42,472 nucleotides of DNA from a virus, in UHGV virus genome UHGV-0206950. One strand, written 5' to 3'. Within the stretch, counting starts at the first letter, position 1, and each line of letters starts with the position of its first letter. Of the stretch, positions 3,340 through 41,960 are shown piece by piece. The notes below the pieces were generated by a model. That model saw nothing but the letters and a program-made list of their open reading frames with translations. It had not been told where the DNA came from and did no database searches. The translations under genes were made by a program, and so were the position numbers.

Positions 3340-3588
3340 ATGACCGGGCAATCGGATTATCTCCCGCCCGGTCTCCCGCTCAATCGTGCTAAATGGCCAC
3401 AAGAGTGCCAACTCAAGGAGCATTACGACATGCGCGCCGCCGCGCTCGTTCGTCAGCTCTATGAGCGGAAAGTTACTCGCCAGACGGTTATTCAGCACAT
3501 TGACGCGACGCCGGAGAGTTATCGGGATTTTTTCAGAGAACGTTTGAATTACTGGCGCCAGCAGCACGAAGGGGGAAAGAGTGAATAA
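3340..3588 (+). CDS. hypothetical protein (82 aa)
   Basis: ORF with AAGG SD-like sequence; tightly packed between neighbouring genes. Confidence 0.4.
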   Translation: MTGQSDYLPPGLPLNRAKWPQECQLKEHYDMRAAALVRQLYERKVTRQTVIQHIDATPESYRDFFRERLNYWRQQHEGGKSE

Positions 3589-4183
3589 AAAGTACACGTT
3601 AATTTATGCGGATCCTCCCTGGGAATACAGAGACAAAGCAGCGGATGGTGACCGCGGCGCCGGGTTTAAATATCCGGTGATGAATGTTCTAGATATTTGC
3701 CGTCTTCCTGTGTGGGATCTCGCTGCTGAAAGTAGCCTGCTGGCTATGTGGTGGGTTCCGACGCAGCCGCTTGAAGCACTGAAGGTAGTTGAGGCATGGG
3801 GGTTTCGTTTGATGACAATGAAAGGCTTTACCTGGAACAAGTGCGGAAGCCGTCAGACAGAAAAATTGGTAATGGGAATGGGGCATATGACCCGTGCTAA
3901 TAGTGAAGATTGCCTTTTTGCAATTAAGGGGAAACTCCCTGAGCGTATTGATGCTGGGATTATCCAGTCATTTACAGCGCCTCGTCTGGCTCATTCACAA
4001 AAACCTGACTTTGTGCGTGAAAAGTTAGTTCAACTGTTGGGTGACGTACCACGTATAGAACTATTTGCGCGCCAGTCATCACATGGCTTTGACGTATGGG
4101 GAAATGAGTGTGGTTCGTCTGATGTAATGCTGCTGCCAGGAATAGCTGAATTTATCAAGGAAGATAGGGAGAGTGCTGCATGA
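3581..4183 (+). CDS. N6-adenine DNA methyltransferase, MT-A70 family
   Basis: N-terminal YTLIYADPPWEY (DPPW catalytic motif typical of MT-A70 family phage adenine MTases); GTG start after GGGGGA. Confidence 0.75.
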   Translation: MNKKYTLIYADPPWEYRDKAADGDRGAGFKYPVMNVLDICRLPVWDLAAESSLLAMWWVPTQPLEALKVVEAWGFRLMTMKGFTWNKCGSRQTEKLVMGMGHMTRANSEDCLFAIKGKLPERIDAGIIQSFTAPRLAHSQKPDFVREKLVQLLGDVPRIELFARQSSHGFDVWGNECGSSDVMLLPGIAEFIKEDRESAA

Positions 4184-4935
4184 CAAAGCCAGCAACAATT
4201 CTTGATATGTGCTGCGGCTCCCGCATGTTCTGGTTCAACAAGCATGACACCCGTGCTGTGTTCACTGATATCCGCACCGAAGAGCACGAGCTGTGCGACG
4301 GTCGCCGCCTGGTTATCAGTCCCGACCTGATTGCCGACTTTCGTTCACTGCCGTTCGCTGATTCTTCTTTTCCGGTTGTGGTGTTTGACCCGCCACATCT
4401 GGAGCGTGTGGGCCAGTCTGCCTGGATGGGTAAAAAATACGGGAGACTGAACAAAAAAACGTGGCGTTCTGATTTGCGAACAGGATTCAAAGAAGCTTTC
4501 CGCGTGCTGCGGCCACACGGCGTGCTCATCTTCAAATGGAACGAAACGCAGATACCGGTTAGCCAGATTCTGGCGCTTACAGATGTGAAACCTGCAATTG
4601 GCCAGCGTACCGGAAAGAACGACAAAACCCACTGGATAATATTTACGAAAGAAACTGGTGACGATACCTGCAATCTCAAAAGCGCCCTCCTTGATAGCGC
4701 ATACCGTAGATTACATGAGCTGGAGAGTTTGCTTCTTCCCGAGGTGCCAGAAACAGTCTGGCCAGTTGAGGTCAAGATGATTTTTGAGCAAATAAACAAC
4801 GCCGAGAGTCTGCCTGAACATCACCAAAGGCGACTAAAGCATCATATCAATCGCATGTGGTTAGAAAAAATGTCAGCACAGGAGATTGTGATTGCTGCTC
4901 GTTCGCTAATGAATGCAATGGAGAAATACGCGTGA
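4180..4935 (+). CDS. class I SAM-dependent (probable DNA) methyltransferase with DPPH motif plus about 90-aa C-terminal extension
   Basis: motif I-like ILDMCCGSRMFW followed by VVVFDPPHL (motif IV-like); ATGA overlap with upstream MTase. Confidence 0.55.
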   Translation: MTKPATILDMCCGSRMFWFNKHDTRAVFTDIRTEEHELCDGRRLVISPDLIADFRSLPFADSSFPVVVFDPPHLERVGQSAWMGKKYGRLNKKTWRSDLRTGFKEAFRVLRPHGVLIFKWNETQIPVSQILALTDVKPAIGQRTGKNDKTHWIIFTKETGDDTCNLKSALLDSAYRRLHELESLLLPEVPETVWPVEVKMIFEQINNAESLPEHHQRRLKHHINRMWLEKMSAQEIVIAARSLMNAMEKYA

Positions 4936-7067
4936 GAGAAATCATCGTTGATAATTTTGCTGGTGGTGGCGGTGCGTCAACCGGTATTGAAATGGCGATC
5001 GGTCGCAGTGTTGATATAGCAATCAACCACGATGAGAACGCTGTGGCGATGCACACTACGAATCACCCTGATACGCTGCACTATTGCGAGTCTGTGTATG
5101 AGGTTCGCCCAAAGGTAGCAACTGCGGGGCGCCCGGTGGCGCTGGCGTGGTTTTCTCCTGATTGCCGCCACTTTTCTAAAGCCAAGGGCGCTAAACCTGT
5201 CGAGAAAGCTATCCGTGGACTGGCATGGGTTGTGCTGCGTTGGGGGCTGGATGTTGAACCACGGGTAATGAAACTGGAGAACGTCGAAGAGTTTAAAACG
5301 TGGGGACCATTATTACGTGAAATGCCATTCATCAGTCACGCGGATCGCTTTCTTGATGAATTTATCGGACCACCTGAGCCAGTTGAACAGCGTCCCGACC
5401 CAGCTCGAATTGGTGAAACTTTTAACGCCTTTGTCGCAATGCTTACAACCGGCATTTCTGCAGATCATCCGGCGCTGGCAGAATGCTGTGAGTTTCTGAA
5501 TATTTCGCTTGATAGCGATGACGCCGCGCGGCTGGTAAAAGGCCTGGGCTATGTAGTTGAGTATCGCGAACTGCGCGCCTGTGACTATGGCGCACCGACA
5601 ATCAGAAAGCGTTTCTTCATGGTTATGCGACGTGATGGGAAGCCGATTGTATGGCCGGAACCAACGCATGGGGATCCGAAATCACCTGCGGTTCAGGCTG
5701 GCAGGCTGGCGCCATGGCGTACAGCTGCGGAGTGTATCGACTGGTCAATTCCGGCTCTATCGATATTCGACCGCAAAAAGCCGCTTGCAGAAAATACCCT
5801 GAAGCGGATCGCGCGCGGCATACAGCGCTTTGTTATCGACAGTGCGTCGCCGTTCATCGTGAAGTGCAATCACACCAGCACCAAAACGAGTTACGACTGT
5901 TTCCGAGGTCAAGCGCTGGGCGAACCTTTGCAGACCATTACCAAAACCCACGGCTACGCGTTAGCCGTTCCACATCTGACAAAGTTCCGTACTGGCGCAA
6001 CCGGGCAGCCCGTTACCGAACCGGTACCGACAGTTACCGCTGGCACGTCAAAACGCCCGGGCGGGAATGGGCATGCACTCGGGATTGTTGAGGCTGCACT
6101 GACACCATTCCTGGCGGGTAATGGTGGTAGTGAATACCAGGCTAAACCGCGCCCGCTGGATAAACCTGCTCACACCATTTTGAAGCAATCCCGCGCCTGT
6201 CTGGTTGCGCCAGTGATAGCCCGCCAGTTTGGGGCCAGCATCGGCCACCGGGCAGATGAACCGAGCGCAACTATCACCGCTGGTGGTGGTGGTAAATCTC
6301 AACTGGTAACACCAACGTTGATCCAGATGGGCTATGGGGAACGTCCCGGACAAGAACCGCGTGTGCTGCGACTGGATAACCCGCTGGGTACCGTTACTGC
6401 AGGTGGGAATAAATTCGCGACGGTGAGCGCGTTCCTGGCAAAGCATTACGGCGGCAACTATACGGGCCCGGGCGTCGGTTTAGATGAGCCTGTTCATTCA
6501 GTTACCACGGTTGATCACCACGCAGTTGTCGCTGCGCATTTGATGGTCAATAACACCGGACATCCCGGCGGCACACTGGACAATCCGGCTCATACTGTAA
6601 CGACAGGAAATCATCATGCAGTGGTTGCCTCCCATCTGGTGAAACTGCGAGGTACCTGCCGGGATGGGCAGCCAACCAGTGAACCAGTGCCAACGGTGAC
6701 GGCGGGCGGGCTGCACGTAGGGGAGGTGAAAACCACTCTTGCGGTCGATGAGTACGACGAATATCGCGCTCAGCAGACGCTTGAGTTTCTGCGGGAATAC
6801 TGCGGCGAGGATTGCGACGGGCTGGTGACAGTTGGCGGCATAACTTACCGCATCGTTGATATTGGCATGCGTATGCTGCAACCGCACGAGCTATACCGTG
6901 CGCAGGGCTTCCCGGAGTGGTACATCATCGACCAGGACTATCGGGGCAAGAAGTATGCGAAAGACAAGCAGGTTGCGCGATGCGGTAACGCCGTGCCACC
7001 GCCGTTTGCAGAGGCGCTGGTGAAGGCTAATTTGCCTGAATTATGCGTAAGCAGGGAGGCCGCGTAA
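4932..7067 (+). CDS. DNA (cytosine-5) methyltransferase with greatly expanded variable region containing about 7 tandem TRD-like repeats
   Basis: GTG start overlapping upstream TGA (GTGA); motif I IVDNFAGGGGAS, motif IV-like FSPDCRHFSKA, motif VI KLENVEEF, motif X CGNAVPPPF at C-terminus; repeats PVPTVTAGTS / PSATITAGGGG / PLGTVTAGGNK / PVHSVTTVDHH / PAHTVTTGNHH / PVPTVTAGGLH between motifs VI and X. Confidence 0.75.
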   Translation: MREIIVDNFAGGGGASTGIEMAIGRSVDIAINHDENAVAMHTTNHPDTLHYCESVYEVRPKVATAGRPVALAWFSPDCRHFSKAKGAKPVEKAIRGLAWVVLRWGLDVEPRVMKLENVEEFKTWGPLLREMPFISHADRFLDEFIGPPEPVEQRPDPARIGETFNAFVAMLTTGISADHPALAECCEFLNISLDSDDAARLVKGLGYVVEYRELRACDYGAPTIRKRFFMVMRRDGKPIVWPEPTHGDPKSPAVQAGRLAPWRTAAECIDWSIPALSIFDRKKPLAENTLKRIARGIQRFVIDSASPFIVKCNHTSTKTSYDCFRGQALGEPLQTITKTHGYALAVPHLTKFRTGATGQPVTEPVPTVTAGTSKRPGGNGHALGIVEAALTPFLAGNGGSEYQAKPRPLDKPAHTILKQSRACLVAPVIARQFGASIGHRADEPSATITAGGGGKSQLVTPTLIQMGYGERPGQEPRVLRLDNPLGTVTAGGNKFATVSAFLAKHYGGNYTGPGVGLDEPVHSVTTVDHHAVVAAHLMVNNTGHPGGTLDNPAHTVTTGNHHAVVASHLVKLRGTCRDGQPTSEPVPTVTAGGLHVGEVKTTLAVDEYDEYRAQQTLEFLREYCGEDCDGLVTVGGITYRIVDIGMRMLQPHELYRAQGFPEWYIIDQDYRGKKYAKDKQVARCGNAVPPPFAEALVKANLPELCVSREAA

Positions 7068-7405
7068 TGGCAAAATCAGCAGCAGAGCGCAAAGCAGCAC
7101 AGCGTGCCCGCCAGTCTGCTGCTGGTGGGCGGAAACTTGAACTGGTGCTGGATGCGCAGGAACTGGAAATGCTTGCCCGAAATTGCGCAGATCGTCGACC
7201 AGGCCGCACACCGTATGAAATGGGGGAATATATAGCGCTTCTCATTCGCCAGGATGATGCGCGTGTAAAGGGGCAGATAAAATCAATCCGCGCAAATAAA
7301 TGCAACAAGTGCGGTGACTCATTACCGGTTAAAGCATGCCCATGCGCAGGTGATTCTCAGTGCTGGGTTACACACGGATGGCATGTAGTAAAACTGACAA
7401 CGTGA
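7067..7405 (+). CDS. hypothetical basic/Cys-rich protein (112 aa)
   Basis: TAATG overlap with MTase stop, AGGGAGG SD; C-terminal CNKCGDSLPVKACPCAGDSQC cluster. Confidence 0.45.
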   Translation: MAKSAAERKAAQRARQSAAGGRKLELVLDAQELEMLARNCADRRPGRTPYEMGEYIALLIRQDDARVKGQIKSIRANKCNKCGDSLPVKACPCAGDSQCWVTHGWHVVKLTT

Positions 7406-7413
7406 CATGTCAC
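7400..7413. repeat. perfect 14-bp palindrome CGTGACATGTCACG spanning stop codon of preceding gene
   Basis: read directly. Confidence 0.5.
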
Positions 7414-7436
7414 GATACCCTAACACCTTAAAACGA

Positions 7437-7463
7437 ACCGCCAGAAAATGGCGGTTTTTCTTT
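7437..7463 (+). terminator. rho-independent terminator (7-bp GC stem accgcca/tggcggt, loop gaaaa, T-tract)
   Basis: accgccagaaaatggcggtttttcttt read directly. Confidence 0.7.
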
Positions 7464-7525
7464 ATTAAACAAGTGTGTACAAAATAGCCATGTTTGGTAT
7501 TTTAACGTTTTGTGCCTTTAAAAGT

Positions 7526-7554
7526 TTGCACTTACTGCCACTTGGGAGTATATA
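7526..7554 (+). promoter_or_regulatory. sigma70 promoter: -35 TTGCAC, 17-bp spacer, -10 TATATA
   Basis: near-consensus hexamers with optimal spacing read directly. Confidence 0.6.
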
Positions 7555-7574
7555 TACTGTATGTTTATACAGTA
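7555..7574 (+). promoter_or_regulatory. LexA (SOS) box TACTGTATGTTTATACAGTA abutting the -10 element
   Basis: perfect CTGT-N8-ACAG with TA flanks matching the E. coli LexA consensus taCTGTatatatatACAGta. Confidence 0.7.
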
Positions 7575-7593
7575 TGCTTGTGAGGGAGGGAAC

Positions 7594-7785
7594 GTGTTCA
7601 AAAAGACGGAGGTAGGGGAACATCTCCCCGATAACGGTCGCGTTCTCATAACCTGCAAGAATGGTAAGGTGACGGCACTTAGAAACATCTATGATGATGA
7701 ACATGTCGCGTCACTTAAATCGTTGTTAGAGCTGGCAGAACAAGCAGGTTGTGTCGTTGTTCAAAGAGGCAAAACTAAGATATAA
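7594..7785 (+). CDS. small hypothetical protein (63 aa), first gene downstream of LexA-boxed promoter; candidate SOS-induced antirepressor/regulator
   Basis: GTG start after GAGGGAGGG SD; in-frame ATG at 7561 lies inside the LexA box and lacks SD, so the alternative 74-aa start is less likely. Confidence 0.4.
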   Translation: MFKKTEVGEHLPDNGRVLITCKNGKVTALRNIYDDEHVASLKSLLELAEQAGCVVVQRGKTKI

Positions 7786-7852
7786 TCATGGTATCGGACT
7801 GAACACCCGGAACCTGTATTTCTGAGCAATTGCTGCGCTAAAGGGGAAACCA

Positions 7853-8449
7853 ATGGCGCAGTATTCATTTGTAAAATCAGCAGGCGGAGTATTAATTCCG
7901 GCGACGCCTGACGCACGGGAATTTATCGAGAAAAAATTCCGTCTTGGTGCTGTTTTATATGCTGACTTTAAACAGGCACGTAATGCGGCATTTCACCGTA
8001 AATTTTTTGCACTCCTGAATCTTGGTTTCGATTACTGGCAACCGTCGGGCGGTGCAATATCCCCGGCAGATAAAAAACTGGTTCACGGATATGTTCAGCT
8101 GGTGGCCCATTATGCTGGCCATGAAGAAACACTCCAGGAGCTGGCCGATCAGTATCTGCGTGAAGAAGCAGAAAAACGCGCCGGCAATATCAGCGCTGTA
8201 AAATCCTTTGAAGCATTCAGAGCCTGGGTAACTATCGAGGCGGGTTTTTATACTCAATACGAAATGCCAGACGGTACGACCCGCAACGAACCCAAATCCA
8301 TATCGTTTGCCAAAATGGACGATCTCGAGTTTTCCCAACTTTATAAATCCGTACTTGATGTGCTATGGAATTATATTTTATTCCGCACATTTCCCACCCA
8401 GCAGGCTGCAGAAAACGCCGCCTCACAATTATTCAGTTACGCCGCATGA
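7853..8449 (+). CDS. conserved lambdoid nin-region-type protein (198 aa; DUF1367-like by recollection, function unknown)
   Basis: ORF with AAGGGGAAA SD; position between replication genes and Q; family assignment from memory only. Confidence 0.5.
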   Translation: MAQYSFVKSAGGVLIPATPDAREFIEKKFRLGAVLYADFKQARNAAFHRKFFALLNLGFDYWQPSGGAISPADKKLVHGYVQLVAHYAGHEETLQELADQYLREEAEKRAGNISAVKSFEAFRAWVTIEAGFYTQYEMPDGTTRNEPKSISFAKMDDLEFSQLYKSVLDVLWNYILFRTFPTQQAAENAASQLFSYAA

Positions 8450-8739
8450 AGAAAATCGATCTCACCAAACAGGCTCGCGGTCGCATGTGCACTGTGCGCA
8501 TTCCGGGTATCTGCAATTTTAATCCAGAAACCAGCGTTCTTGCCCATTATCGCATGAGTGACACCTGCGGGATGGGAATCAAACCACATGACATGCAAGG
8601 CGCAATTGCTTGCAACTGTTGTCATGACGTAATCGATGGCCGTGTAAAAACCGATATTGATCAGGACACCCTGAGGCTATATCACGCCGAAGGTGTTTTC
8701 CGTACCCAACAAATCTGGAGAGAGGAGGCGTTTATATGA
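8446..8739 (+). CDS. YbcO-like DUF1364 protein (putative metal-binding nuclease of lambdoid nin regions)
   Basis: MKKIDLTKQARGRMCTVRIPGICNFNPETSVLAHYRM...IACNCCHDVIDGR closely parallels E. coli DLP12 YbcO (AARGRECQVRIPGVCNGNPETSVLAH...IACSACHDEID); ATGA overlap with upstream gene. Confidence 0.65.
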   Translation: MKKIDLTKQARGRMCTVRIPGICNFNPETSVLAHYRMSDTCGMGIKPHDMQGAIACNCCHDVIDGRVKTDIDQDTLRLYHAEGVFRTQQIWREEAFI

Positions 8740-9314
8740 TTAACCCATCAACGACAGGAAAAGGTGGTGAAATGCTGCGATTAAACACCCTCGAGTCAGT
8801 CTGGATTCAGGGTAAACTTCGTATGTGGGGCCGATGGTCATATATTGGATCCGGCTCAGGTGGTCACATGTTTAATAACCTTCTCGCGTCAAAAAAAGTC
8901 AGTAAAACGGCCATTCAGCAGGTGTTGAAGCACCTCAAATCATCAGGCCTGGATCACGGTGAACTGATGTCATATTTTCTGGACATGCTTTCCGGAAAAG
9001 AAAAAAGCAACCTGGCGTTCTGTACCGATGAAGAAGCGTTGACCATCAACGCTGTACTCAGCGGTGTCCTTGTGCAGTCAGGGCATAAGAAGTTATACGC
9101 TCTTATTGAAGATCGTTATATCAAGCGCCTTAGCAAAAAGGCGATGGCCAGAGACTTAAATGAAAAACATCCTGAATGGTGCTTGCGTACATGTGAGAGC
9201 CGGATCGATGTTTGGCTAAATTTTGCAGAATCGATGCTTTACGCGCCAATGTGTGACGCATTCGATAAAAAAGTTGATCGATTCCGGTTGCAAAGTTGCG
9301 CGGGGATTGCTTGA
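8736..9314 (+). CDS. late-gene antitermination protein Q-like
   Basis: position (last early gene before terminator-leader-lysis cassette), size 192 aa, ATGA coupling; family assignment by resemblance only. Confidence 0.5.
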   Translation: MINPSTTGKGGEMLRLNTLESVWIQGKLRMWGRWSYIGSGSGGHMFNNLLASKKVSKTAIQQVLKHLKSSGLDHGELMSYFLDMLSGKEKSNLAFCTDEEALTINAVLSGVLVQSGHKKLYALIEDRYIKRLSKKAMARDLNEKHPEWCLRTCESRIDVWLNFAESMLYAPMCDAFDKKVDRFRLQSCAGIA

Positions 9315-9364
9315 ATTCAGCTATGCTCGCGAAGCTACACCCGCAGCGATAGATAAAAATTAAT

Positions 9365-9394
9365 AACCCGCCATCCAAGCGGGTTTTGTCGTTT
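9365..9394 (+). terminator. rho-independent terminator (tR'-like) 50 nt after Q stop
   Basis: aacccgc-catccaa-gcgggtt followed by ttgtcgtttc. Confidence 0.65.
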
Positions 9395-9813
9395 CTGGAG
9401 GATAGAAAAATGAAATAGCTAAACGGAAAGACCGCGTTGGATGCCATATTTTGGCAACGTGACGACAGCGTTAATCTGGTCGGGCTCCCATGGCGACGTA
9501 GTGAGGGAGAGGAAGCTTAAAGCATCACTTAGTTACGGCTGGCGCCCGGTTTAACGCATCAGTAGCCCGACAAAGAGATAGTGCGCCGCGACACTCACAG
9601 CGGCAACGATTAACGAGCCTCGGTATTTACCGGGGCTTCATCATATTCAGGGCTCGCTGACGGACGGCTCATAACCCAATCCGACAGGCGCTTGCGCAGA
9701 GCCCGCCTCTATATCAGGCTCCGGGTTCCATCTTCGACATTGCCCCGTAGCATATACAGCCCGATAGCCTGATCCCTTACAACACACAGCGCCCCGATTG
9801 CGGAGGTGCGGAT

Positions 9814-10128
9814 ATGCAACGTATGAACCCAACCGATGGACATAACATGCCGTACTGGTGGTCAGGGCTGCTTGGTTTTTTTTCTGTTCTGAGTTTGCAA
9901 GATTATGTATTTATCCTTGGCGCTCTGATCTCGGCTTATTTCACCATTAAGACCTACTACGCGAAGCGGAAAGAAGAACGTGAACGGCTTGATGAAGAGA
10001 AAAAAAGAACGCAGTTATTGGCTAAGTACCTTGCTGATGTGGCCGTTAAACCAGGTCGAGATCGCCCAGCAGCGGCTGAGGTCGTGACAGAGGCAATGAA
10101 ACGCATCTCTGGAGAGGTAGCAAAATAA
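9814..10128 (+). CDS. holin, two-TMD (class II/pinholin-like)
   Basis: GGAGGTG SD; two hydrophobic segments (WWSGLLGFFSVLSL, YVFILGALISAYFTI) then charged C-terminus; immediately upstream of SAR endolysin. Confidence 0.6.
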   Translation: MQRMNPTDGHNMPYWWSGLLGFFSVLSLQDYVFILGALISAYFTIKTYYAKRKEERERLDEEKKRTQLLAKYLADVAVKPGRDRPAAAEVVTEAMKRISGEVAK

Positions 10129-33691: not shown

Positions 33692-33897
33692 GCAGTTCCC
33701 CACGTGGGTAGCCCATTGCTACCCACAACACGCTTCATTCCCTCCGGTGGTACACCTAAAAACTCCAGAGCCATATCGTCATCGACGGGCTTAATATCAT
33801 CAGGCAAAACGCCATTTGCACGGTATGCGTCGAGTAACACTGTCGGGTAAAATTGATTCGTTGACGCGCTATAAAAGTAAATATTCATTATCACCAC
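33688..33897 (-). CDS. alternative tail fibre assembly protein (inverted orientation; U'-like)
   Basis: N-terminus MNIYFYSASTNQFYP matches common Tfa N-termini; convergent with and overlapping Tfa by 4 nt. Confidence 0.5.
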   Translation of the reverse strand: MVIMNIYFYSASTNQFYPTVLLDAYRANGVLPDDIKPVDDDMALEFLGVPPEGMKRVVGSNGLPTWGTA

Positions 33898-34265
33898 CCC
33901 TTCGCATACCAGTTACATGTCAAATTCGCCGGATTGACGTTATTACCCTCTGCGGTTGCGCAGCCAACTCTGAATTTTGAGTTACTGACAGGGAATGCCT
34001 GTGAAATCTCAGCATATGACGTGTCATTCGGATCTGAGCTAATCAAAACGAACGCACAACGGTTCGGGAACGGGATGACGAAATCCCCATCGCCGTTTCC
34101 ATAATTACCGCGCCCCCACTGCTCCAGAAATCCGTCTGGAGTCAATCGCCACCCGTAATCCGCTTTCAGCGATGTCCACTTGCTCATGTCGGGGATCTGG
34201 TTTGTCCCGGTCCCTACATCCCTTTTTGCCGCTTCTCCCAGACCAACGTTTTTAATAATGATCAT
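33891..34265 (-). CDS. alternative tail fibre C-terminal variable segment (S'v-like) in inverted orientation
   Basis: ORF opposite the fibre gene, lacks own N-terminal constant part; in-frame TAA immediately upstream of its ATG; lies between Tfa' and invertase as in Mu/P1 invertible segments. Confidence 0.45.
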   Translation of the reverse strand: MIIIKNVGLGEAAKRDVGTGTNQIPDMSKWTSLKADYGWRLTPDGFLEQWGRGNYGNGDGDFVIPFPNRCAFVLISSDPNDTSYAEISQAFPVSNSKFRVGCATAEGNNVNPANLTCNWYAKGW

Positions 34266-34312
34266 TTATCGCTCAGATGGCATGATTCCGGCCTTTTGCA
34301 GGAAGAAAACTC

Positions 34313-34733
34313 ATGCTGATTGGCTATGTACGCGTGTCAACAAATGACCAGAACACTGCACTCCAGCGAAACGCGCTCGAGAGTGCAGGATGTGAACTGA
34401 TATTCGAAGATAAGATCAGCGGTAAGGTGTCCGACAGACCAGGATTAAAATACGAGTACGCCTATGGGGAGATTCTTCTTTCATGTTATGGGTGCACTGG
34501 CCGAAATGGAAAGGGAGCTTATTGTCGAACGCACCCGCGCCGGTTTAGCAGCCGCACGCGCAGAAGGGCGGATAGGTGGAAGGCGCCCGAAGTTTAGTAG
34601 TGAAGAATGGGCGCAAATGGGACGATTGATAAAAAATGGAATGGCGCGAAAGCAGGTTTCAATTATTTACGATGTTGGAGTATCTACACTGTACAAAAAA
34701 TTCCCTGTGTCTATATGTGAGGTCGGAAACTAG
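34313..34733 (+). pseudogene. Gin/Hin/Cin-family serine DNA invertase disrupted by internal deletion of about 140 bp with frameshift
   Basis: N-terminus MLIGYVRVSTNDQNTALQRNALESAGCELIFEDKISGKVSDRPGLK matches invertases; after RPGLK the frame is lost; downstream ORF in another frame resumes MGRFFFHVMGALAEMERELIVERTRAGLAAARAEGRIGGRRPKF...YDVGVSTLYKK; about 50 residues of the catalytic domain missing. Confidence 0.7.
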
Positions 34734-34993
34734 TTGAACCTACCGTGGGGGTTATCAATACCTGCATCCATGTAGTTTATTGCTTTCTGTAACTCCTTTA
34801 TCAGTTCTTCTGCACGAGTACGTGAGATACACATAAACTGATCTGGGAATTCCTTTACTGGCCAATGTGGGATGCATGCCATGTTATCGATGAATGATGC
34901 AGACAGATAGACTTCATTTGTGAGCAGGGAATAGCTGACGTTAAAACCAGCTAATTCTTGTAGGCTGCTGACATTGGATTCTCTGTTTTTCAT
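34730..34993 (-). CDS. hypothetical protein (87 aa), AT-rich moron adjacent to attP
   Basis: low-GC ORF with AT-rich upstream region 34994-35170. Confidence 0.35.
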   Translation of the reverse strand: MKNRESNVSSLQELAGFNVSYSLLTNEVYLSASFIDNMACIPHWPVKEFPDQFMCISRTRAEELIKELQKAINYMDAGIDNPHGRFN

Positions 34994-35182
34994 GATAGTC
35001 TCGGTACTGTGTTTTTATACAGCTACTATCCTCAATAGCAGATAATCAGTCAAGACATAGTGCATAATTTAGAAGAATATCGACGTTTGCGTTGTACCTA
35101 ATGTATTGTTTTTGAGGTGCTTTTTGTATTGATGTTATTCTTTTTTATTATGTTATAATTTTGATTTTTAAGTGTTATTTTT

Positions 35183-35242
35183 CGGTCTTGAAAACCGGCG
35201 ACCCGAAAGGGTTCTAGAGTTCGAATCTCTACGCTTCCGCCA
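35183..35242 (+). other. attP core: 60 nt matching the 3' part of tRNA-Ser(UGA) (anticodon stem-loop, long variable arm, T-arm, acceptor 3' strand, CCA); not a complete tRNA
   Basis: CGGTCTTGAAAACCGGCGACCCGAAAGGGTTCTAGAGTTCGAATCTCTACGCTTCCGCCA versus E. coli serT 3' end ...CCGGTCTTGAAAACCGGCGACCCGAAAGGGTTCCAGAGTTCGAATCTCTGCGCTTCCGCCA (from memory); 5' acceptor/D-arm absent. Confidence 0.7.
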
Positions 35243-35250
35243 AATTTAAC

Positions 35251-35286
35251 AAGGGGTTAGCTAAATGCTAACCCCTTTGTTTTTTG
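35251..35286 (+). terminator. rho-independent terminator (11-bp stem aaggggttagc/gctaacccctt, T6 tract) just after tRNA-like core
   Basis: read directly. Confidence 0.65.
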
Positions 35287-37546: not shown

Positions 37547-39819
37547 TATGCATTCTCCTGGGATTTGTTCAGTTCAGCGATACGTTCATCTTTGATGGTT
37601 GTCAGGCGACGCAGGCGCCCACTTAAATAGCGCGCATGTTGCGTGTCACCCTTCGCCTCTGCGTCCTTGCGATGCACCTCTGCTTCACGGGCAATCGAAG
37701 AATAAACCTTGTTGATCTCGTTCTCTGACACAGCTGATGCAAGGGTGTTTGCGACTTTGGTCAGTTTATCGTCCAGTTCCTGACGTACGCGGGCTGCATC
37801 CTCTGCGTTTTCGCTGGCGTTTTTGAGCGCAAATTCAGCTTTATTTTTCTGGCGATATTCCGGGTTATCGTACAGTCCCATGAAAATGTCAGCGCAGAAA
37901 CCAAGTGCAGACAGCGCTTTTTTGGTTGCGTCAGTCAGTGATTTTTTTGTCGCTTCACCATCGCAGATAGGGCCGTATTTACTGCCGTAGATATACGGGG
38001 TACACCCGAATGAAATCTCTTCACCGCGCGCACCATTCCGGATGTACCAAAGTCTGATTTTGATAACGTGGTGTTTCTCTGTCAGGATGCCGCCTACACC
38101 GTCGGGGATAAACTCCCATGTATTGTTACCGTCAGTCCCTTTGACTGTGCGAGTAATTGGCGCGCCATCGTCAAAGCGTTCCTCCAGAATATCGACACCC
38201 CAGCCGATACCTTTCGGACCAAATTCGCGGGTGGCGATCATGGTCATGTAGGTGCCATTGATTGAGGTTCCACCGCCATTCACAGAGAACGCGGAGGTAA
38301 AGCGTTCGTCTGTTTTGAATACTTCTTTCCACAACTCCAGGTTGTCGCTTTCGCCAGCCTGCATTTCATTAATGCTTTTAACCAGTTCGGACGCCTGGGG
38401 AAGCTGTTCTTCACGCTTAACACGCTCGACGAGCTGATCCGCATCCTGAACAATTGTTTTCACTTTATCACTCAGATTTTCATCCTGTTGAACGGTTGTA
38501 TCTTGGCTGGTCGCATATACTCCGTACCCCATATTATTTAGCGTTTCACGAGCTTGTTCCGCCTGGTCTTCTGTAACTCTTTCCTGTTCTGCCACTTCCG
38601 TTTTTTCACCTTCATTTGAGGCTGTTTCAGGCATAGTTCCATCACGCGAAAGCGTTTTGTCATCTTGGGTTGAATCCTGGGGTTGGGTATTGGTTTTAAC
38701 CCATTTAGGATCATCAGAGTCGCTGATACCGTCCACATATTCGCCGCGTTCTGCCGCAAGCTGCTTGCCGGTTCTTTCTGCATCCGTTTCGGCACATTCG
38801 AGTTGACCATGTTCAGCCAGCCATGAATCAATATGGCGTCGCAGTGACTCAGGGAAATGGTATGTATCTTTAGATGGGACATTCTGAATAACCCCAAAGA
38901 TACTCGGGCGGTCATATTTGAGAATCTGCACGGTAGTACGCAATGCAGCTGACCAACGTTTGAAATCCTCCCGGTCATCGGAAATCATTTTTTCTGCATC
39001 ACGGAGATTGCCTGATAACACAGGCGCATCAGGCGCGATGGGAAGTAGGGCAACGGCAATTTCCTGATCCAGTGTTGCGTAGGTGTGTTTATAACTACGT
39101 TGTGGCGCTACAGCTACATTGTCATTTTTAACGCAGGTACTGAGTGATGATGTTTTGTTTGGTACCATCTCATCACGCTTACCTGGGTTTTCCAGCCAGC
39201 GTTTAATAAATTGTGAAATCGCAGCTTTACCCGGTGTCTGATCTTCAAAGTTTGCGTAAATGGCCTGAATGAGATTATTAAGGCCTTCAACATGCATATG
39301 CTGCACGGGTTCGTTATTGTGCAGCGCGTGGAGAATATTGAGATTAACCCGATCATCCTCATCAAAGGATTCATCGTTATTTTCCAGATTATCGAGATAA
39401 TCCAGCACCTGAGAGTAAAGAACTCCATCGATGGGAGAATCGCTGAACATAAGGACGGCCGCGAAGCGTTCCCGGGATGGTAGCTTTGCCAGATCGATAA
39501 TCTCGTTACTGGCTGGCAGGTTTGAAACGTTGGTCTCCGGCTCGTTGATGATCCATTTTTCCCCATCGAATGTGTGTGCCAGGGCAAATTGTTCATCGAA
39601 CTTACCAACAGCCGGCAGCGGCAGACCTTCAGCATGTTCCCATAACTTGGGTTTGAAATAGTTGTCACCGTTGGCAGGGTAGGCTTCCCAGAGTTTGCCG
39701 GTCATGATGCTTTCTGCCACTTTTTTGTTTGGCGCATCAATTGCGATCGCCAGTTGAACGGCCCCGCAATCTTTAACCGCTGATTTTTTTGGCTCAAATA
39801 AGCCGTTGTAGATGGTCAT
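37546..39819 (-). CDS. Erf-family single-strand annealing protein with about 480-aa N-terminal extension of unknown function
   Basis: C-terminal third carries Erf-like block (…KSLTDATKKALSALGFCADIFMGLYD; cf. P22 Erf …SSYARKYCLNGLFGIDD); start preceded by GAGGAAAGACCAATG motif. Confidence 0.5.
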   Translation of the reverse strand: MTIYNGLFEPKKSAVKDCGAVQLAIAIDAPNKKVAESIMTGKLWEAYPANGDNYFKPKLWEHAEGLPLPAVGKFDEQFALAHTFDGEKWIINEPETNVSNLPASNEIIDLAKLPSRERFAAVLMFSDSPIDGVLYSQVLDYLDNLENNDESFDEDDRVNLNILHALHNNEPVQHMHVEGLNNLIQAIYANFEDQTPGKAAISQFIKRWLENPGKRDEMVPNKTSSLSTCVKNDNVAVAPQRSYKHTYATLDQEIAVALLPIAPDAPVLSGNLRDAEKMISDDREDFKRWSAALRTTVQILKYDRPSIFGVIQNVPSKDTYHFPESLRRHIDSWLAEHGQLECAETDAERTGKQLAAERGEYVDGISDSDDPKWVKTNTQPQDSTQDDKTLSRDGTMPETASNEGEKTEVAEQERVTEDQAEQARETLNNMGYGVYATSQDTTVQQDENLSDKVKTIVQDADQLVERVKREEQLPQASELVKSINEMQAGESDNLELWKEVFKTDERFTSAFSVNGGGTSINGTYMTMIATREFGPKGIGWGVDILEERFDDGAPITRTVKGTDGNNTWEFIPDGVGGILTEKHHVIKIRLWYIRNGARGEEISFGCTPYIYGSKYGPICDGEATKKSLTDATKKALSALGFCADIFMGLYDNPEYRQKNKAEFALKNASENAEDAARVRQELDDKLTKVANTLASAVSENEINKVYSSIAREAEVHRKDAEAKGDTQHARYLSGRLRRLTTIKDERIAELNKSQENA

Positions 39820-41187: not shown

Positions 41188-41203
41188 CTTAACTAAAGGT
41201 AAG
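41188..41203. promoter_or_regulatory. operator OL1: CTTAACTAAAGGTAAG (reverse complement CTTACCTTTAGTTAAG)
   Basis: 16-bp interrupted palindrome, 14/16 identical to the site in the cI-cro intergenic region. Confidence 0.55.
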
Positions 41204-41222
41204 CTAATGGTCAACGGTTTTG

Positions 41223-41238
41223 CTTAAAAAAAGTTAAG
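41223..41238. promoter_or_regulatory. operator OL2: CTTAAAAAAAGTTAAG, a 16-bp interrupted palindrome sharing half-site GTTAAG
   Basis: read directly; 19 bp from OL1; -35-like TTGACC (rc of 41209-41214) just upstream on leftward strand. Confidence 0.45.
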
Positions 41239-41276
41239 TTAAGGCGCTATGTTCTGTAACCTGCTGAAAATTTTAT

Positions 41277-41678
41277 TTATTTTTTTTGTGATTTTTTTCT
41301 GGCAGCTAATAGCTCTTCGAAAAGAGCGTTGAAGTCATCAACCTTTTGCTCTAATTCAGCCAAATGCCGGTCTTTTTCTGACTCAGGAAGGGAATCGAAA
41401 AGCTCAAGTAGTTTGAGTTGGCGATCGTCTAACTCTGTGGGAATTTCCGATGGGGGTAATGGAGTTTGGTCATCATCTCCATAAAGTAGCCACGTAGGAG
41501 AGCACTTCAGGACTTTACTTAATGCGAATAGATTCTTGCCACGGGGCTGCGTTTCACCGCTTTCCCATTTAAATATAGTGACGTGTGAAACCTTCACAGC
41601 ATCCGCGAGTTTCTGCTGTGACATATCTAATTGTGTTCTTCTGCTGCGGATACGGTCGTTCAGTTCGATGTTCTTCAT
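41277..41678 (-). CDS. CI-like repressor, XRE-family HTH only (no S24 peptidase domain)
   Basis: HTH QQKLADAVKVSHVTIFKWESGETQP; 133 aa, acidic helical C-terminus without Ser/Lys protease motifs; divergent from cro-like gene. Confidence 0.7.
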   Translation of the reverse strand: MKNIELNDRIRSRRTQLDMSQQKLADAVKVSHVTIFKWESGETQPRGKNLFALSKVLKCSPTWLLYGDDDQTPLPPSEIPTELDDRQLKLLELFDSLPESEKDRHLAELEQKVDDFNALFEELLAARKKSQKK

Positions 41679-41701
41679 AGGGTTAATGTAAATTAATTTG
41701 A

Positions 41702-41717
41702 CTTACCTTATGTTAAG
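41702..41717. promoter_or_regulatory. operator OR: CTTACCTTATGTTAAG overlapping -35 TTGACT (41698-41703) of rightward promoter
   Basis: read directly; near-identical to reverse complement of OL1. Confidence 0.55.
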
Positions 41718-41756: not shown

Positions 41757-41960
41757 GTGCTTACAAAAGATGCAATAAATTATTTTGGTAGTAAGGCCAA
41801 ATTGGCAAAAGCACTGGGTGTATCTCAGCCCGCAGTTTCTCGTTGGGGATTGCATATCCCAGAAAAGAGGGCCGCTCGTCTGGCTCTTATGACTGCTGGT
41901 GAGCTTGTATACGATCCATGCGAATACCAGGACATTTCAAAGACTGATGACGCAGCTTAA
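41757..41960 (+). CDS. Cro-like / YdaS-family HTH regulator
   Basis: KDAINYFGSKAKLAKALGVSQPAVSRWG...PEKRAARLALMTAGELVYDP matches YdaS/Cro-family pattern; GTG start 6 nt after GGAGGT. Confidence 0.55.
   Translation: MLTKDAINYFGSKAKLAKALGVSQPAVSRWGLHIPEKRAARLALMTAGELVYDPCEYQDISKTDDAA

Follow-up and report, generated by a model that had tools for sequence, protein, structure and literature searches.

A LexA-boxed gene for a Rem/FsoA-family protein as the probable SOS input of a DicA-type lysogeny switch in phage genome UHGV-0206950

How could DNA damage reach the lysogeny switch of a temperate phage whose repressor carries no self-cleavage domain? The question is raised by UHGV virus genome UHGV-0206950 (42,472 nucleotides, the whole of which is called the window here), in which a promoter-like site, a LexA (SOS) box and a gene for a 63-residue protein occupy positions 7526 to 7785 and the gene for a DicA-family lysogeny repressor lies at 41277..41678 on the minus strand. 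From sequence comparison and analogy with characterised phages, we consider it likely that this locus is the SOS input of a Gifsy-type two-module switch, in which a LexA-repressed antirepressor of the Rem/FsoA family inactivates the DicA-family repressor.

On the plus strand, TTGCAC (7526-7531), a 17-nt spacer and TATATA (7549-7554) were read directly in the window sequence as a promoter-like site (7526..7554), which is kept in 7/9 aligned relatives. The LexA box TACTGTATGTTTATACAGTA (7555..7574, plus strand) abuts the -10 hexamer and spans the expected transcription start. It is a TACTG-(TA)5-CAGTA type palindrome with CTGT-N8-ACAG, as expected of an E. coli-type SOS box, with both 8-nt arms perfect and 18/20 positions in agreement with TACTG(TA)5CAGTA (both differences fall in the central spacer). 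Shuffled versions of the window contain 0.03 copies of the pattern on average when up to 3 mismatches are tolerated, and the box has 0, so we do not regard it as a chance match; the same pattern search found just one other site in the window, a weaker one at 35005. TATACT (7553-7558) was considered as an alternative -10 hexamer; its spacer from TTGCAC would be 21 nt.

Downstream of the box, a Shine-Dalgarno sequence (GAGGGAGG, 7582..7589, plus strand), whose GGGAGG core is kept in relatives, stands 4 nt before a GTG at 7594, which opens a frame of 63 codons closed by the stop at 7783-7785 (gene 7594..7785, plus strand). The GTG was preferred to an ATG at 7561 inside the LexA box because the Shine-Dalgarno sequence and GTG are kept in all relatives, the box of the Salmonella relatives lacks an ATG, and the NCBI-annotated homologues are 63 residues long. 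Upstream, an intrinsic terminator (7435..7465, plus strand; 9-bp stem at 7435-7457, 5 of its pairs G-C, followed by a T run) ends the early-right transcription unit directly before the LexA-boxed promoter and is kept in relatives. The perfect SOS box behind the promoter and the small open reading frame (ORF) with its strong Shine-Dalgarno sequence had both been pointed out in a preliminary description of this DNA, and both are present as it described them.

By its sequence the 63-residue product is a member of the Rem/FsoA family (PF27490, phrog_340). It matches phrog_340 at 2.1e-18, the PHROG that is also matched by Rem of E. coli K-12 (4.4e-21) and by FsoA (1.1e-26), and it matches, more weakly, two PHROGs with the label anti-repressor at their C-terminal ends; the preliminary description, which had found no obvious similarity to known antirepressors, was wrong on this point. 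PF27490, named 'Rem' in genomic context tables, is precomputed on 26/28 of the close homologues. Scans of the protein itself against Pfam and NCBIfam returned no family, the empty Pfam result being explained by a scanned set that did not contain the PF27490 model. In pairwise comparison the protein has 42% identity and 70% positives with FsoA over 43 residues (E 3e-12) and 36% identity with Rem over 42 residues (E 3e-5). We identified FsoA as Fels-1 STM0898.2n, for which the published primers le154/le162 encode the N-terminus MNSQQMM and the C-terminus EAGIRFEEISNVG.

A profile search against 1.8 billion representatives gathered 86 relatives, mostly of 55-100 residues. Alignments give the family core as LPxxGRVxxTxxNGxVxxxRxxxxDEHVASLxxFxELAxxAGY in single-domain proteins of ~55-85 residues, and the window protein has this core as LPDNGRVLITCKNGKV...DDEHVASLKSLLELAEQAG. 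In some relatives a Rem-like core of ~50 residues forms the C-terminal domain of larger, modular Ant-type proteins with N-terminal Bro-N, KilA-N, P22_AR_N, pRha or ORF6N domains, whereas in the window the core stands alone. An AlphaFold2 (AF2) model from a 60-sequence alignment (predicted local distance difference test, pLDDT, 90.1) has a helix at residues 4-10, a beta hairpin at 16-32 and a helix at 41-50; with a shallow alignment the model reached a pLDDT of only 62.8. Searches of PDB sequences with two Rem-family profiles gave chance-level matches only, and Foldseek of the AF2 model against PDB and BFVD gave no significant match, so the fold gives no functional lead. Judged by family membership and by analogy with Rem and FsoA, the protein is very likely an antirepressor of the window's DicA-family repressor. 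Rem-family ORFs are unannotated or called 'hypothetical' in the database records examined.

The predicted target is the 133-residue repressor (41277..41678, minus strand). Pfam places HTH_3 at residues 10-64, returns helix-turn-helix families only and finds no Peptidase_S24 domain, in agreement with the preliminary description, which had called it a CI-like repressor without an S24 autoprotease; a CI-like self-cleavage route of induction is thereby ruled out. Repressors of the lambda CI type carry a C-terminal Peptidase_S24 domain, as do the 241-residue repressors of two related loci discussed below, and the window repressor does not. The protein scores 192.6 bits with NCBIfam model NF007257 (DicA; cut-off 101) and shares 55% identity with DicA of E. 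coli K-12 over the full length and 33% with GtgR of Gifsy-2 (E 3e-12), with which it has the motif LLxLFxxLPExEK in common. Divergent from the repressor gene lie a gene for a Cro-like regulator (P22_Cro; 41757..41960, plus strand; Pfam 8.5e-20; 67-residue relatives) and, after it, a YdaT/CII-like gene. Three copies of a 16-bp quasi-palindrome flank the repressor gene: CTTACCTTATGTTAAG at 41702..41717, between repressor gene and cro, is 88% complementary to the copy at 41188-41203, and CTTAACTAAAGGTAAG and GCTTAAAAAAAGTTAAG (41188..41238; copies at 41188-41203 and 41222-41238; repeat families D1, I2 and I3) follow the repressor gene on its downstream side, where the leftward promoter is presumed to lie. 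These quasi-palindromes are candidate operators of the repressor.

Relatives were collected by exact-protein look-ups; a scan of genome contigs gave only two loci. The box lies upstream in 12/12 other loci examined in which a homologue precedes a NinB-type gene (L001, L003, L005-L010, BUCT708 and L022-L024; protein identity down to 38%). Eight of these loci, from E. coli, Citrobacter, Salmonella, Yokenella and sequencing-run assemblies, encode proteins 59-98% identical to that of the window, and in all eight a CTG-N10-CAG box occupies the same position; the CTG and CAG are unchanged throughout the 9/9 aligned upstream regions, where mean column identity is 69%. The box is also present in the distant members BUCT708 (47% identity), L022/L023 (40%) and L024 (38%), and in each 20-kb relative locus the one upstream of the rem-like gene is the only strong LexA box. 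L009 and L010 have a different promoter, with TTGAAT and a -10 overlapping the box as in Gifsy-2, and the box is still kept. A 568-bp contig, L025, has no LexA box.

The association with DicA-type repressors was followed from both sides. In 8/8 DicA-type phages and prophages checked (the window, BUCT708, mEp460_ev081, Qin, PhiR42_1, PPompW_EH2246, Klebsiella ST405-OXA48phi1.2 and Cronobacter phiES15), a Rem-family ORF lies between the replication genes and Q, with E values between 9e-38 and 2e-9. Of these ORFs, two were unannotated and fill gaps in the nin region (L014 10173-10475 in phiES15; L018 12169-12417 in ST405-OXA48phi1.2). Among the LexA-boxed rem loci with a repressor gene in the available sequence (n=11), 9/11 have a short non-S24 repressor that ends in the same C-terminal module: the 133-residue DicA type in the window, L005, L010, L022 and BUCT708, a 151-residue helix-turn-helix repressor in L001, L003 and L006, and a 121-residue repressor in L024. 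The other two, L007 and L009, have a 241-residue S24-type repressor.

The Rem-family ORFs of phiES15 and ST405-OXA48phi1.2 have no LexA box. Each of these genomes has a strong LexA box at its right end (39118-39137 in phiES15; 39734-39753 in ST405-OXA48phi1.2), preceding a 79-residue gene and a UmuD-like gene. The phiES15 record states that the phage was obtained by UV induction.

Both components of the proposed switch have characterised relatives. Rem and DicA of the E. coli K-12 prophage Qin are homologous to the two window proteins, rem likewise lies between the replication genes and Q, and ectopic Rem raises the DicA-repressed promoter dicBp 165-fold (Ragunathan and Vanderpool 2023, PMC10448788). 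Qin differs from the window in that the prophage is defective, whereas the window phage looks intact; in that Rem has 83 residues against 63 (core 36% identical); and in that its rem has no LexA box, whereas the window gene has a conserved one of high quality. FsoA of Fels-1, in the same PHROG (phrog_340), is the closest characterised homologue of the small protein and derepresses Gifsy-2 lytic genes under GtgR control (PMC3121763), GtgR being the repressor noted above for its likeness to that of the window. The fsoA gene is found in the left operon under the S24-type repressor of Fels-1 and is not LexA-controlled, whereas the window gene stands under a LexA box. Relief of repression by members of the Rem/FsoA family is established for Rem (PMC10448788) and FsoA (PMC3121763) only.

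The layout of the locus resembles that of Gifsy-1, -2 and -3 (GfoA, GftA and GfhA), which like the window combine a short, non-cleavable DicA/RacR-like repressor with a small antirepressor gene that lies downstream of the replication genes, outside the immunity region, behind one or more terminators and a LexA box overlapping the promoter. The Gifsy antirepressor promoters are LexA-controlled, downstream of replication genes and preceded by terminators, and GfoA and GftA bind their cognate repressors and release them from operator DNA, the target of GftA being GtgR (PMC3121763). We read the Gifsy-2 locus as two terminators, TTGAAT, 15 nt, TATACTGTGTTTATATACAGTG, a Shine-Dalgarno sequence and dinI, followed by STM1020.1n, which is gftA (its start agrees with the published primer); L009/L010 and Gifsy-2 share the arrangement TTGAAT-15-TATACTGT. 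Gifsy operons run dinI, antirepressor, irsA, whereas in the window the 63-residue ORF comes first and is followed by ninB/DUF1367, and Pfam gave no DinI match in that ORF or in the three genes after it. GftA itself matches phrog_4847; BLASTP against the 63-residue protein gave no alignment, and hhalign of the Rem-family profile against GftA gave a marginal match in the same register (probability 50%, E 1.6e-4, 43 columns). Any kinship between GftA and the Rem family is remote at best.

LexA-repressed antirepressors that inactivate non-cleavable immunity repressors are also represented by 186 Tum and N15 AntC (as cited in PMC3121763), and the same is proposed for the window. Tum is a protein of 146 residues with a DinI-like C-terminal half (PMC3121763), whereas the 63-residue protein has no DinI-type family match; family scans, the only means by which the window protein was compared with Tum and AntC, found no family in common. 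The preliminary description had likened the locus to both 186 Tum and the Gifsy phages: the Gifsy layout is present, without dinI and irsA, and the likeness to Tum does not extend to a DinI family match. Its central proposal, a LexA-repressed antirepressor acting on a non-cleavable repressor, is backed by the Rem/FsoA and DicA homologies, the conservation of the box and the co-occurrence of the two genes.

In a lysogen, host LexA bound to 7555-7574 would keep the promoter of the small gene off, since the box abuts the -10 hexamer and covers the expected start site, and the 133-residue repressor would hold the divergent early promoters around 41188-41717. Upon DNA damage, activated RecA would provoke self-cleavage of LexA, the promoter would fire and the 63-residue protein would accumulate. 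The repressor would need an antirepressor because, without a peptidase domain, it cannot cleave itself. By analogy with Rem-DicA, FsoA-GtgR, GfoA-GfoR and GftA, we infer that the small protein would bind the repressor and remove it from its operators, so starting the lytic programme.

Several observations weigh against this account. The promoter hexamers agree with consensus at only 7/12 positions (TTGCAC at 3/6 of TTGACA; TATATA at 4/6 of TATAAT, without the T at position 6), and a consensus promoter scan called no promoter within 7000-10000; the hexamers reported in the preliminary description are there, and 'near-consensus' overstated them. Qin-type rem genes have no LexA box and follow a hok/mok cassette, so LexA control is not a trait of the whole family. 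FsoA is dispensable for induction of its own phage, Fels-1 (PMC3121763). L007 (Yokenella) and L009 (Salmonella) pair the LexA-rem module with an S24-type repressor that presumably cleaves itself, and one identical Rem-like protein, P0025, occurs beside the S24 type among these loci and beside the 133-residue type in L010; presence of the gene therefore does not strictly depend on a non-cleavable repressor. Another identical Rem-like protein, P0007, was found with both the 133-residue and the 151-residue types. The sequence of the Rem-like protein does not track immunity type. Two explanations offer themselves for L007 and L009: a recent exchange of the immunity region, or retention of the gene for action on other prophages.

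Action on other prophages could be the whole function of the gene. The small protein would then be a trans-acting 'crosstalk' antirepressor like FsoA, directed at DicA/GtgR-type repressors of co-resident prophages, and induction of the window phage itself would be independent of it. Phages with S24-type repressors, which should not need an antirepressor, encode the identical protein, and FsoA, the closest characterised relative, acts in this way (PMC3121763). Phages that carry Shiga toxin (Stx) genes have homologues in the left operon, in the position of fsoA in Fels-1 (46-48% identical Rem-family proteins in the early-left region of Stx1a/Stx2a-converting phages, LC567818-LC567842, ~4.4-7.1 kb from the left end). 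Set against this, the window repressor has no self-cleavage domain and belongs to the very family on which Rem and FsoA act, and no other induction route is visible: the Pfam, PHROGs and NCBIfam scans, which covered part of the window ORFs, gave no other antirepressor family. We regard an exclusive role in trans as improbable. Some of the strains with these Stx phages also hold the DicA-type prophage PPompW with its own rem, and the Rem-family proteins of the Stx phages are a possible route for cross-induction between prophages of enterohaemorrhagic E. coli.

The genes that follow raise a second alternative. The NinB/DUF1367 gene (7853..8449, plus strand; Pfam DUF1367 5e-84), probably co-transcribed from the LexA promoter, is overlapped at its stop by a YbcO-type nuclease gene (8446..8739, plus strand; Pfam YbcO 1.4e-40; start taken from 97-residue homologues in L005/L006), and a Q-like late antiterminator gene (DUF1133/Phage_antitermQ; 8736..9314, plus strand; phrog_753 8e-62) is the last before a terminator called by the terminator scan at 9365-9385, after which a holin gene follows. 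The stretch between the small gene and ninB (7786-7852) has no terminator-like hairpin with a U tract, and from 7785 to 9314, where the Q-like gene ends, no terminator was found. Because the promoter sits directly after a strong terminator and none follows the small gene, the LexA-promoter transcript probably also carries ninB, ybcO and the Q-like gene, an order (rem-like, ninB, nuclease, Q) that is kept among relatives. The LexA promoter could accordingly serve mainly for SOS-dependent transcription of ninB, ybcO and Q past the terminator, with the small ORF as an accessory leader gene, and both the terminator arrangement and the conserved gene order speak for this. Q without inactivation of the repressor would, however, mean late transcription without replication or excision, and purifying selection on the small protein, a member of an antirepressor family, is clear. 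As the main purpose of the promoter we hold this to be quite improbable, a shade more so than action in trans alone; read-through to Q is likely an additional effect beside the antirepressor function and not an alternative to it.

It is very improbable that the 63-residue protein has some other SOS role and leaves the repressor untouched, as a DinI-like RecA/LexA modulator, a division inhibitor or a toxin, for although many LexA-controlled prophage genes are of such kinds, the first gene of the Gifsy operon is dinI (PMC3121763) and the fold has no solved relative, the protein has no DinI or other Pfam/NCBIfam match and it significantly matches both the Rem/FsoA family and the C-terminal domain of large Ant-type antirepressors.

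With the LexA-controlled antirepressor retained as the preferred explanation, the repressor side offers one further clue. Residues ~89-133 of the repressor (41277-41410) form the module LLELFxxLPESEKxRHLxELxxKVxxFxxLFEELLAARK, and the same C-terminal module occurs at L006 2964-3086 and L024 3740-3880 behind helix-turn-helix halves that are unrelated or only ~30% identical. The 151-residue and DicA types have only these C-terminal ~41 residues in common (58-63% identity), and the 121-residue type of L024 ends in the same module. The module is thus common to heteroimmune short repressors of the 133-residue DicA, 151-residue and 121-residue types and extends to GtgR, which carries its first motif (LLxLFxxLPExEK); S24-type repressors do not have it. 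The LLELFxxLPESEK...FEELLAARK module could be a dimerisation element, a docking site for the antirepressor, or both. That these ~45 residues are a receiver domain dedicated to Rem-family antirepressors is a tentative idea, suggested by the sequence distribution, to which we give rather less than even credence. Were it true, one LexA-controlled 63-residue protein could induce a set of heteroimmune prophages together, immunity regions could be freely exchanged while the SOS input in the nin region stayed constant, and S24-repressor phages that keep the LexA-rem module would only fire their neighbours.

A few observations concern the surroundings of the small gene. The untranslated stretch 7786-7852 is ~89% identical in BUCT708 (L012 1684-1752), beside a small gene that is only 47% identical at the protein level, and it folds somewhat better than shuffles (z = -2.0). 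Rfam gave no match anywhere in the window, 7786-7852 included, and megablast of the locus against phages matched only the neighbouring ninB region. One possibility is that this stretch controls ninB at the translational or RNA level. The early-right operon has three DNA methyltransferase genes in a row (3581-7067) shortly upstream of the LexA module: an MT-A70-like gene at 3581-4183, a second at 4180-4935 and a gene for a 736-residue cytosine methyltransferase at 4857-7067. This is an unusually heavy anti-restriction load.

BUCT708 and BUCT709 (OM816834/OM816835), assigned to Stenotrophomonas, have a DicA repressor of the enterobacterial type (59% identity), an E. coli-type LexA box and a gene for a Rem-like protein. 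LexA of Xanthomonadales recognises a different motif, so that either the host assignment or the regulation of these phages merits a second look.

The window has the appearance of a temperate phage genome that is complete and circularly permuted, because the YdaT-like gene, a small ORF and the replication gene, contiguous in relatives, are split across its two ends, and because the integrase gene and a tRNA-like attachment (att) core lie inside it without host flanks. A sequence resembling a tRNA 3' end (…GGTTCTAGAGTTCGAATCTCTACGCTTCCGCCA), followed by an 11-bp hairpin, adjoins the integrase gene at 35180-35277; ARAGORN found no complete tRNA there, and the sequence is probably the attP core. 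Beside it is a second LexA-boxed unit (34730-35053, minus strand). Its promoter, TTGACT-17-GATAGT (35053-35025), was called by the promoter scan, and the weaker box mentioned above (plus-strand sequence TACTGTGTTTTTATACAGCT, 35005-35024) comes directly after GATAGT. The unit encodes an 87-residue ORF (34730-34993, minus strand; phrog_17793, of unknown function; no Pfam match) with homologues common in Citrobacter and Salmonella, and a Salmonella copy beside sopA keeps the CTG-N10-CAG box (TACTGTACAAAAAACCAGTA). Flanked by a broken invertase gene on one side and the att/integrase region on the other, the unit sits where morons are typically found. The invertase (Pin/Hin-like) gene appears to be broken into ORFs 34313-34597 and 34464-34733, and the ORF next to it (33891-34265, minus strand) matches only the C-terminal ends of tail-fibre proteins; the region 33891-34733 looks like what is left of an invertible tail-fibre switch of host range.

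The mechanism of induction proposed here is already known, and the window locus would be a further example of it: 186 Tum and the Gifsy phages had already shown that non-cleavable repressors can be the targets of antirepressors under LexA control, the family to which the small protein belongs has a name in Pfam, and the finding would not surprise a specialist. A literature search for a LexA-controlled Rem found only the 2023 Qin paper, whose authors state that the signal inducing Rem of Qin is unknown (PMC10448788). That Rem-family genes can, as these loci suggest, be LexA-controlled is a modest new point. Because rem at the same position in intact relatives has a conserved LexA box, DNA damage is the likely original signal of the DicA-Rem switch, since lost in Qin-type phages. 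Spotting a DicA-type repressor together with a LexA-boxed rem would improve predictions of which Citrobacter, Salmonella, Klebsiella and E. coli prophages can be induced with DNA-damaging antibiotics.

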